From positions 7,401 through 71,400 of the forward strand of contig JAFRTE010000046.1 in NCBI GenBank assembly GCA_017427285.1: a DNA stretch of 64,000 nt, read 5' to 3'. Made by a program: the position numbers and the translations under genes. A model generated the notes under the pieces. That model searched no databases. It worked only from the letters and a program-made list of their open reading frames with translations, and was not told the DNA's origin. Positions 28,581 through 29,378 of the stretch are shown here, in pieces. Each line of letters opens with the position of its first letter. Position 1 is the stretch's first letter. This stretch comes from Clostridia bacterium. Its GTDB lineage: Bacteria; Bacillota; Clostridia; Oscillospirales; UBA644.

Positions 28581-29378
28581 TTAATGTCCTCGCTTGTCAA
28601 GAAGGGCAATCGCTTTGTCAAGAAAAGCTTTCCACAGCGTTTTGACCGGCTTGTTATTACCGAAAAGCGCAACGAGCTTCGGGCTTACCGCATAATAGAT
28701 CTTAATAAACGCTTTTCCCAAAATATGCTTTTTCAGAAAACCGTCGCGAAACCGTCTCAGCGTCATGACCGGCGCGCAGTCATACGAACCGTAAACGCAT
28801 GTGGCTATATAGCACCCTTCGGAGCTGTTGTTTGTATTGTTCTCGGAATTATCCGCAGAAACGGTTTTGCTCGTCGCGGCGTTATGGTTTAGCTCGTATG
28901 CCCGCTCGATAAGCTGCGATTTTTTTTCCGTTTCCTTTTCACCTGCACCGCAGCGGGTATTTCCTCCGTATAGATCGGGCGTTGACGAATCTGTTTTGCT
29001 GCTTTCTCTTCCGTAAGAGGTATATCCGTCAAAGAAAACCGGAGAGCTGCTATCGTTTTTGCCTTGCTCACCGTAGTGAGTATAGCCTCCGAATATACCG
29101 GGGGTCGTCGAACCGGTTTTTCTTCCGTCTTTGTCGTAATTGATATACTCGCCGAAAAAGCCCGGGGAACTGCTTCCCGTTTTCTTTCCGCTTGCGTCGT
29201 AGTGCGTATACCCTCCGAAAAAACCGGGGCTTGACGAACCTGTTTTTTTGCCGTTTTTGTCGTAAGTGGTATATCCTCCGAAAATGCCGGGTGAGCTGTA
29301 TCCCGTTTTCTTTCCGTTTTCGTCGTAATGCGTATTTCCGCCGAAAATATTCGGTTCGCTGCGTCCTTTTTTCGCCAT
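28581..29378 (-). CDS. YD-like tandem-repeat protein with a Cys-rich C-terminal CYIATCVYGSYDC...LRRFRD domain
   Basis: 265 aa with no signal peptide. About 6.5 copies of a 21-aa unit (xFGGYTHYDxxGKKTGSSSPG). C-terminal GCYIATCVYGSYDCAPVMTLRRFRDGFL...YYAVSPKL resembles the widespread [10 protein letters not shown]...LRxFRD type domain. SD TAGGAGCA. The start is 33 nt after the P5 stop. Confidence 0.75.
   Translation of the reverse strand: MAKKGRSEPNIFGGNTHYDENGKKTGYSSPGIFGGYTTYDKNGKKTGSSSPGFFGGYTHYDASGKKTGSSSPGFFGEYINYDKDGRKTGSTTPGIFGGYTHYGEQGKNDSSSPVFFDGYTSYGRESSKTDSSTPDLYGGNTRCGAGEKETEKKSQLIERAYELNHNAATSKTVSADNSENNTNNSSEGCYIATCVYGSYDCAPVMTLRRFRDGFLKKHILGKAFIKIYYAVSPKLVALFGNNKPVKTLWKAFLDKAIALLDKRGH
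28941..29348 (-). repeat. 63-bp (21-codon) coding tandem repeat, about 6.5 copies
   Basis: The repeat units are read directly from the translation (aa 11-146). They degenerate toward the C-terminal side. Confidence 0.85.

Follow-up and report, generated by a model that had tools for sequence, protein, structure and literature searches.

A leaderless gut Clostridia protein joins YD-like repeats to a C-terminal CFI-box domain found behind many unrelated heads

The window analysed here, a 64-kb stretch of DNA from a ruminant-gut 'Clostridia bacterium' metagenome-assembled genome (MAG), carries on its reverse strand a complete open reading frame (ORF) of 265 codons plus a stop (28581..29378, minus strand), which starts with ATG and ends with a stop codon at 28581-28583. 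The frame is intact over 798 nt, and the exact 265-aa protein is present on six contigs. A Shine-Dalgarno-like GGAG (29385..29388, minus strand) is read in the upstream sequence 6 nt 5' of the ATG; on the other side, 17 nt past the stop codon, lies a hairpin resembling an intrinsic terminator, with a stem of 12 pairs followed by a run of T (28536..28564, minus strand). This gene is real. Its product is built of two modules, an N-terminal array of short repeats (the head) and a Cys-rich C-terminal domain (the tail), with a low-complexity linker between them. As a first-pass annotation made from the letters alone had stated, hydropathy and the N-terminal sequence reveal no signal peptide and no transmembrane (TM) helix, nor do they reveal a lipobox: the N-terminus is polar (MAKKGRSEPNIFGG), and the highest 19-residue Kyte-Doolittle mean in the protein is 1.08.

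The first ten residues, MAKKGRSEPN (29349..29378, minus strand), agree with the family consensus MANKGRSEPN in the alignment and are themselves the second half of a repeat unit (compare GKKTGxSSPG); AlphaFold predicts a strand for aa 3-9. Four well-preserved units of 21 aa follow (aa 11-94; 29097..29348, minus strand), with the consensus [IF]FGGYTxYDxxGKKTGSSSPG, and then the decayed units 5-7 (aa 95-146; 28941..29096, minus strand). The first-pass annotation had described 6.5 near-perfect copies. The period of 21 aa is indeed real (among the first 160 aa there are 68 self-matches at offset 21, whereas none of 2000 shuffles gives more than 31), and in the DNA Tandem Repeats Finder reports periods of 63 and 126 nt while a separate repeat search finds six copies of 63 nt. 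Only units 1-4, however, are good copies, with pairwise aa identities of 48-81%. Unit 5 starts well and is partial, its 20 aa leaving it one residue short; units 6-7 have only 5-33% identity to the other units in a fixed 21-residue register and retain no more than traces of G-Y-T-x-Y-G. The stretch from aa 95 to 146 is missing from the closest homologue, P0001 (183 aa). The linker (aa 147-187; 28818..28940, minus strand), which had been described as N/S/T-rich, is rich in Glu, Lys, Ser, Asn and Thr, and is missing from typical family members of 193 aa.

The DNA of the units is less uniform than the 'high DNA identity' first ascribed to it. Unit-to-unit identity is 60-81%, the longest exact direct repeat is 16 nt, and the array has a two-unit super-period of 126 nt at 81% identity. 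Synonymous differences are found in 9-11 of the 21 codons when unit 1 is compared with unit 2 and unit 2 with unit 3. Because these differences are so many, the duplications that gave rise to the units must be old, and because the changes between units are rich in synonymous ones, the protein sequence appears to be under purifying selection. With units at these identities and no longer exact repeat than 16 nt, the array is a poor substrate for slippage.

The resemblance of the repeats to the YD/RHS type, proposed at first pass, is weakly but consistently borne out by profile comparisons. The units have a period of about 21 residues, the motif Y-x-x-Y-D-x-x-G-K and predicted beta-hairpins. Of 66 family members, 16 match the Pfam model PF05593 (RHS_repeat) at E up to 1, the best at E=2.4e-5, and a genuine YD protein of 2005 aa (P0369) scores E=1e-13 against the repeat region of the window protein. 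The window protein itself has no Pfam match even at E up to 10, and its repeat-region profile finds in the PDB only Rhs core structures, at a non-significant E of 0.078. A full-length AlphaFold2 model, run with a 66-sequence alignment, contains ten strands over aa 3-103 with a predicted local distance difference test score (pLDDT) of 80-91; strands of 7 and 5 residues alternate, giving one predicted beta-hairpin per unit. After aa 103 the pLDDT falls to 28-55, and aa 106-188 are predicted to be disordered: the score is below 50 from 106 to 152 and from 165 to 188, with a single helix of low confidence at aa 152-169. The protein thus shares with RHS/YD proteins (PF05593; the shells of Rhs and Tc toxins, and teneurins) a 21-residue period, the x-Y-D-x-x-G and P-x-G turns, a predicted hairpin per unit and a weak profile similarity that points only to Rhs. 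RHS/YD proteins, however, have dozens of units, whereas this one has four to five intact ones, so that no closed shell can be expected; it also has no Rhs core, autoproteolysis motifs or toxin domain, it ends in a different domain altogether (the CFI-box, below), and it is leaderless and probably cytoplasmic. The cell-wall/choline-binding and glucan-binding repeats of beta-hairpin solenoids, of about 20 aa, likewise form short hairpins rich in aromatic residues and Gly, and Foldseek gives weak matches to the glucan-binding domain of alternansucrase (E ~7e-3, not significant), but those repeats are extracellular, carry a GW/YYF motif and have no sequence-profile match to the window protein.

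The tail (aa 189-256, CYIATCVYGSYDCAPVMTLRRFRDGFL...GKAFIKIYYAVSP...; 28611..28814, minus strand) matches the NCBIfam family NF041770, 'CFI-box-CTERM', with a score of 72.2 bits (E=2.2e-20), where the curated cutoff is 40 bits; the alignment takes in positions 1-68 of the 69 in the profile. Only nine residues separate the end of the domain from the stop codon, which confirms its C-terminal position. The widespread C-terminal module of LRxFRD type noticed in the first-pass annotation is therefore one that is now curated, and the name given by the PGAP family library would be 'CFI-box-CTERM domain-containing protein'. Profile comparison with known families accordingly divides the protein in two: its C-terminal part falls in a curated but uncharacterised family, and its repeat part has no significant match. 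With other NF041770 proteins it shares a C-terminal domain of about 69 aa that starts with C-[FY]-[IV]-A-T and continues with Y-G, LRxFRDxxL, GRxF and YYxxSP; it differs in belonging to a gut-Clostridia subfamily, in having two extra Cys residues (CYIATCVYGSYDC), and in lacking both a signal peptide and a TM helix after the box. Two alignments that take in Proteobacteria, Bacteroidota, Firmicutes and one haloarchaeon define the invariant columns as C, G, L-R-x-x-R-D-x-x-L, Y and P, and the window protein keeps all of these residues (C189, G197, L207, R208, R211, D212, L215, Y228 and P233).

AlphaFold predicts four helices for the tail, both in the full-length model (pLDDT about 80) and for the CFI-box alone (pLDDT 79.6; predicted template-modelling score, pTM, 0.62). 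The helices are hydrophobic on one side, with Trp, Phe and Leu, and polar on another, with Lys and Arg; the domain has a pI of 9.9. Searches of PDB sequences with the protein and with profiles return nothing for the tail and only the insignificant Rhs matches for the head. Foldseek gives no significant PDB match for the whole or the tail model, and none in BFVD for the tail model. PHROGs and PADLOC contain no match for the window protein (0 PADLOC-DB families at E up to 1). The Cys-rich tail was also considered as a spore-coat protein, a RiPP precursor or an autoprocessing domain of the intein/hedgehog type. These readings were dropped in view of its helical fold, its length of about 70 aa, its wide occurrence in non-sporulating Proteobacteria and archaea, and the lack of any matching profile.

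The protein had been called novel-looking, but it is far from unique. At least 1657 homologous protein clusters are found at E up to 1e-3, and relatives occur in 539 of 185,579 species genomes, mostly MAGs labelled Clostridia/Clostridiales and Oscillospirales families (Acutalibacteraceae, Oscillospiraceae, Ruminococcaceae and Faecousia), many of them from gut or rumen. The window protein is thus a member of a large, uncharacterised family whose tail is already catalogued and whose function is left blank. In the common layout of the listed best matches, MANKGRSEP and about 4.5 units are fused directly to GCY[IV]ATCVYGSYDCPxVWTLRRFRD...; the length is 192-195 aa in 83 of the best 120 matches (mode 193), and members of the wider family have between about 1.5 and 5.5 units. 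At 265 aa the window copy is the longest member seen, exceeding P0001 by about 82 residues of decayed units and spacer. It lacks the C-terminal GxxDTPYxD tail of the family, as P0001 also lacks TPYxD. It is best described as a derived, long variant: it carries two to three additional units, all decayed, and its head and tail are separated by a disordered spacer of 82 aa. Among 249 retrieved relatives, a crude hydropathy test finds one signal-peptide-like N-terminus and one TM-like segment.

Homologue genes outside the window usually stand alone. Clustering of the ORFs from 80 genome loci reveals no conserved operon partner, and when 146 neighbour proteins were scanned with Pfam and PADLOC, none of the 120 Pfam families found was matched by more than four; PADLOC has no model for the CFI-box domain of any relative scanned. 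A phage origin was considered and rejected, given one match in 50,697 phage records and eight in 2.9 million viral contigs. The sole match in a phage record (L089:3176-4231; Clostridioides phage-plasmid pCD1602_4, CP069348.1) is an unannotated ORF of 351 aa, in which a zinc ribbon at the N-terminus and a long helical region are combined with a CFI-box of the gut type (GCYIATAVYGSYDATEVLVLRKFRD...).

Head and tail are independently mobile modules. A tail profile search finds at least 7495 proteins, in which a tail 55-65% identical to that of the window protein stands behind unrelated small heads. The heads found on gut-type tails include zinc ribbons, an L7/L12 C-terminal-like domain, Sel1/TPR repeats, BspA-type leucine-rich repeats (LRR) and many unknowns, and essentially none of these proteins has a signal peptide or TM segment. 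Conversely, the window head (aa 1-105) matches 758 representative clusters, and among the best 149 of these a TM helix follows the repeats in 51 and a CFI-box in 18. The post-repeat TM helix is mostly single and near the C-terminus, with basic residues on the side of the head in the inspected examples (among them P0253 and P0278). These YD-head/TM proteins (such as P0252, P0253, P0278, P0293 and P0299) are about 165-190 aa long, unannotated and free of Pfam matches; they share with the window protein the start M-x-K-x-G-x-S, four to five of the same 21-aa units and a disordered linker, and they have TM helices after the head, most often a single C-terminal one, where the window protein has its CFI-box.

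The canonical form of the domain was surveyed by scanning metagenome contigs for the motif CFIATA[ASI]Y, which gave at least 573 relatives, and 59 complete ORFs were examined. In 27 of these the N-terminus resembles a signal peptide and a TM helix comes soon after the box; nine have the leader only and three the TM helix only; the remaining 20 have neither and are small proteins with zinc-ribbon or TPR heads. The TM helix lies within about 40 residues past the CFI-box in 30 of the 59, and a cluster of Arg follows it in the inspected sequences. Most of the canonical members, 36 of the 59, have a leader; these are typically several hundred residues long, and in most of them the box precedes a TM anchor and an Arg tail. 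In a leaderless example from Haladaptatus the order is CFI-box, RRRR, TM helix.

Further arrangements of the two modules were seen alongside these. Large leader-bearing canonical proteins from the environment end in a nearly fixed cassette of about 112 aa, in which YYRVSPPIAEFI...NTTPAEK is followed by a TM helix and then by RRRxRGPEYT, a layout that resembles a C-terminal sorting signal (metagenome contigs L117, L121, L123, L129, L139, L150, L162, L173 and L187). In a third architecture, represented by P0263, P0274, P0289 and P0302, the YD head is joined to an unknown C-terminal domain (RYIIA..YYRT..VGD...C.EDALP). There are also repeats-only proteins of 105-118 aa, in which the YD head is followed by a short Lys-rich tail without a CFI-box (L080:5977-6318, L082:6001-6318 and L085:5959-6315). 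A gene for an HTH/WYL-type regulator adjoins the repeats-only gene in two of these three loci (L080 and L082), and genes near them include those for zinc-ribbon and vWA-domain proteins.

The finding that the same head ends in a TM helix in 51 of the 149 best clusters, together with the position of the canonical box before a TM anchor, suggests a role at the membrane. The CFI-box can be read as a membrane-proximal module because it is found repeatedly in the position of a TM anchor or directly beside one. The window protein, leaderless and built of two modules, would then be an adaptor. The first module (aa 1-103) would fold its four to five beta-hairpins of 21 residues into one short twisted sheet, which is too small for an Rhs shell and would most likely serve as a binding surface. 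The second (aa 189-256), the basic, predicted four-helix CFI-box that begins with the invariant Cys, would stand in for the C-terminal TM anchor borne by the same head in its sister architectures; it would act as a localisation module that keeps the YD head close against the cytoplasmic membrane, at its surface. The inner, cytoplasmic face is the most likely one because the protein has no leader or export signal. Two further features count for membrane proximity: the pI of about 10 and amphipathic-faced helices of the CFI-box, and the presence of zinc ribbons among the heads fused to gut-type tails. Zinc ribbons are commonly found N-terminal to TM anchors. As a mechanism, membrane localisation by the CFI-box is the reading that we would put first, and we hold it tentatively, at somewhat less than an even chance; the assignment of the domain by its profile is much more secure than the mechanism.

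Several observations weigh against this proposal. The window protein has no TM segment of its own, and the hydrophobic moments of the CFI-box helices are moderate (0.29-0.43). What is conserved across phyla is a set of polar or aromatic residues (C, G, LR..RD..L, Y and P), as would be expected of a specific partner or chemistry more than of lipid binding in general. In the 36 canonical relatives with an N-terminal signal peptide the box is extracytoplasmic; because the domain acts on that side as well, the side of the membrane is ambiguous for the leaderless members. In Paracoccus the CFI-box also occurs, without a leader, in proteins that have RTX repeats or a CAP domain, both of them typical of secreted proteins. 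The geometry between head and tail is unreliable in the full-length model (pTM 0.43), and the argument from architectural substitution is indirect. Finally, a full-text search by name and motif strings found no relevant literature on the CFI-box and nothing experimental on any of these proteins, the only matches being chance ones to cathelicidin peptides.

The invariance of the polar R, R and D across phyla would also fit a soluble, cytoplasmic protein that acts as a sensor plus effector or binds a partner, in which the CFI-box would bind one specific partner or itself be the effector. Input specificity would then come from the variable heads (YD sheet, zinc ribbon, cold-shock domain, L12-like domain, TPR, LRR), as in single-gene conflict or defence systems, and the high conservation of the tail behind unrelated heads in at least 7495 proteins counts for this reading. 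In Proteobacteria, the CFI-box genes are found on conjugative plasmids, in their leading or accessory regions, next to genes for PD-(D/E)XK nucleases, ssb, Lar, Fic and zeta toxin, and some Oscillospirales neighbours are of the accessory or defence-island type (WYL, SMODS, Fic, BrxA, macro domain and ADP-ribosylglycohydrolase). Most neighbours, however, are unrelated or housekeeping genes without a conserved partner, the window gene itself sits among genes for transport and carbohydrate use, matches in viral contigs are as few as stated above, and no PADLOC model recognises the window protein or the CFI-box of the scanned relatives. A soluble role also leaves the placement of the canonical CFI-box directly before TM anchors in secreted proteins unexplained, and we regard it as unlikely, if worth keeping in mind.

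The same canonical placement, in which a secreted domain precedes the box and a TM anchor and Arg tail follow it, resembles that of a sorting signal, and it raises the prospect of leaderless export, in which the CFI-box would be a C-terminal sorting or secretion domain and the YD head would lie at the cell surface as an adhesin or ligand-binding sheet. The '-CTERM' in the family name hints at sorting; YD, BspA-type LRR, RTX and CAP domains are typically extracellular and yet occur with a CFI-box and no leader; and the invariant Cys that starts the box usually comes after Gly or Ser, behind a flexible linker. LPXTG, PEP-CTERM and PGF-CTERM signals likewise stand at the extreme C-terminus behind a flexible linker, and canonical CFI-box proteins share with them the TM helix and Arg cluster after the motif. 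Those signals are, however, short motifs, whereas the CFI-box is a (predicted) folded helical domain of about 70 aa, and the sorting-signal layout of a TM helix and an Arg/Lys cluster after the motif is absent from the window protein, which ends ...LLDKRGH. Many of the heads are classic cytoplasmic modules (four-Cys zinc ribbons, cold-shock domain, L7/L12 C-terminal-like domain). The TM-anchored sisters, with basic residues on the head side of the helix and almost nothing past it, also point to a cytoplasmic head. No transporter or processing enzyme is conserved nearby, no dedicated sorting enzyme was found near the window gene, and to our knowledge none is known for the CFI-box. Export in this form is distinctly unlikely. 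A more far-reaching version, in which the CFI-box would be a self-sufficient membrane-surface anchor or a leaderless export or sorting domain that needs no TM helix, works on either face of the membrane and, in gut Clostridia, tethers or displays thousands of small interchangeable heads, miniature YD sheets among them, with the invariant Gly/Ser-Cys junction as the site of processing or attachment, seems improbable.

A drifting paralogue without a selected function would also account for some of the peculiarities of the window copy: its length of 265 aa where the mode is 193, the predicted disorder of units 5-7 and the linker, the missing GxxDTPYxD tail, and the absence both of a promoter of its own and of the palindrome-promoter cassette that about one third of the homologues have (see below). 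But the 798-nt frame is intact and has its Shine-Dalgarno-like GGAG and its terminator, all invariant residues of the CFI-box and of units 1-4 are kept, the synonymous-rich differences between units indicate purifying selection on the protein, and the loss of TPYxD from P0001 as well makes the loss of the tail a feature of the subclade; decay is accordingly quite doubtful in comparison with the localisation role preferred here. A contingency locus, in which slippage or recombination would change the number of units from strain to strain, is the form of the first-pass idea of a likely length-variable array; it is very improbable, for although the range of unit numbers in the wider family and the 126-nt super-repeat, a sign that the array once grew by duplication, would agree with it, the modest DNA identity and short exact repeats of the units, the age of the duplications and the tightly modal length of the family do not, and the identity to the window of four compared loci, of the six contigs with the exact protein, adds little, since these copies are clonal, 100% identical including their flanks, and say nothing on copy-number variability. 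The contigs of a related MAG stop short of this region.

The window gene is an ordinary member of a catalogued family, and its interest lies in the very large, unstudied set of proteins to which it points. At least 7495 small leaderless proteins of gut and rumen Firmicutes have one highly conserved C-terminal domain and freely exchanged heads, and the same domain is present in signal-peptide-bearing environmental proteins and on proteobacterial conjugative plasmids. The comparative pattern leads to the hypothesis that the CFI-box is a membrane-proximal localisation module; if this is true, thousands of 'hypothetical proteins' of the microbiome could be annotated together.

The CFI-box is also part of a recurrent gene pair, carried by conjugative plasmids in Acidovorax, Microbulbifer, Methylophaga, Aeromonas and Xanthomonas (L087:4809-5749, L093:2821-3745, L092:2767-3787, L107:2315-3231 and L108:2312-3916). 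One gene, the first of the two, codes for a CFI-box protein that is about 140 aa long and has an S/T...YC motif at its N-terminus. The product of the second, which usually overlaps the first, is a nuclease of PD-(D/E)XK/Cas4-like type; it is about 170 aa long, begins with a TM helix and has a cluster of Cys residues at its C-terminus. Genes for ssb, TraG, Lar and Fic/zeta are found in the neighbourhood of the pair.

Of 67 regions upstream of family genes, 23 contain a palindrome, aaaGTCC-N8-GGACa (typically GTCCGTTTTATGGGAC), which lies 55-100 nt ahead of the ATG and has a TATAAT/TAGAAT box about 11 nt downstream of it (for example L015:5924-5939, L021:5924-5939, L034:5930-5945, L037:5924-5939 and L061:5933-5948; also L059:398-413, L069:3597-3612 and L042:6569-6584). 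The cassette also stands ahead of unrelated accessory genes, among them those for a BspA-like LRR protein, a DUF2779-like nuclease and a 71-aa membrane protein, and it has the look of an operator at which some regulator would bind. The window gene does not have this cassette. (It should be noted that a palindrome GTCC-N9-GGAC at 28542-28558, considered as an operator, was rejected: it is the stem of the terminator and not the upstream GTCC-N8-GGAC of the homologues.) Inside family genes, the codons for the conserved peptide C-P-Q-V-W-T (TGTCCGCAGGTTTGGAC) form GTCC-N8-GGAC as well, about 355 nt past the ATG (for example L021:6356-6371), probably by coincidence; the window copy reads CAPVMT there and is without this coding palindrome.

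In the window, two paralogous lipoprotein genes (29412-30833 and 30858-32240, minus strand) lie directly upstream of the YD/CFI-box gene on the same strand, and the gap between the nearer of them and the YD/CFI-box gene is 34 nt. A strong match to a sigma-70-like promoter (32307-32279, minus strand) is found ahead of the lipoprotein pair, in a block that extends over 29412..32307, and a weaker, internal promoter-like site is present at 29647-29620 (minus strand). Because the gap is only 34 nt, the two lipoprotein genes and the YD/CFI-box gene probably form one transcript from the promoter at 32307-32279, as judged from this spacing. No Rfam RNA family is found in 26500-32500. Both lipoprotein genes are paralogues of Pfam-positive solute-binding genes elsewhere in the window, which has ten ORFs of 460-486 aa scattered over its 64 kb (1537-2967, 3079-4509, 5383-6810, 10349-11794, 26931-28319, 29412-30833, 30858-32240, 33789-35249, 39255-40658 and 40706-42124). 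A Pfam scan that covered four of the ten gives weak SBP_bac_8/SBP_bac_1 matches for two and no match for the other two, and three adjacent ORFs among the ten have lipoprotein-type N-termini; the whole looks like a large expansion of divergent ABC-transporter solute-binding proteins.

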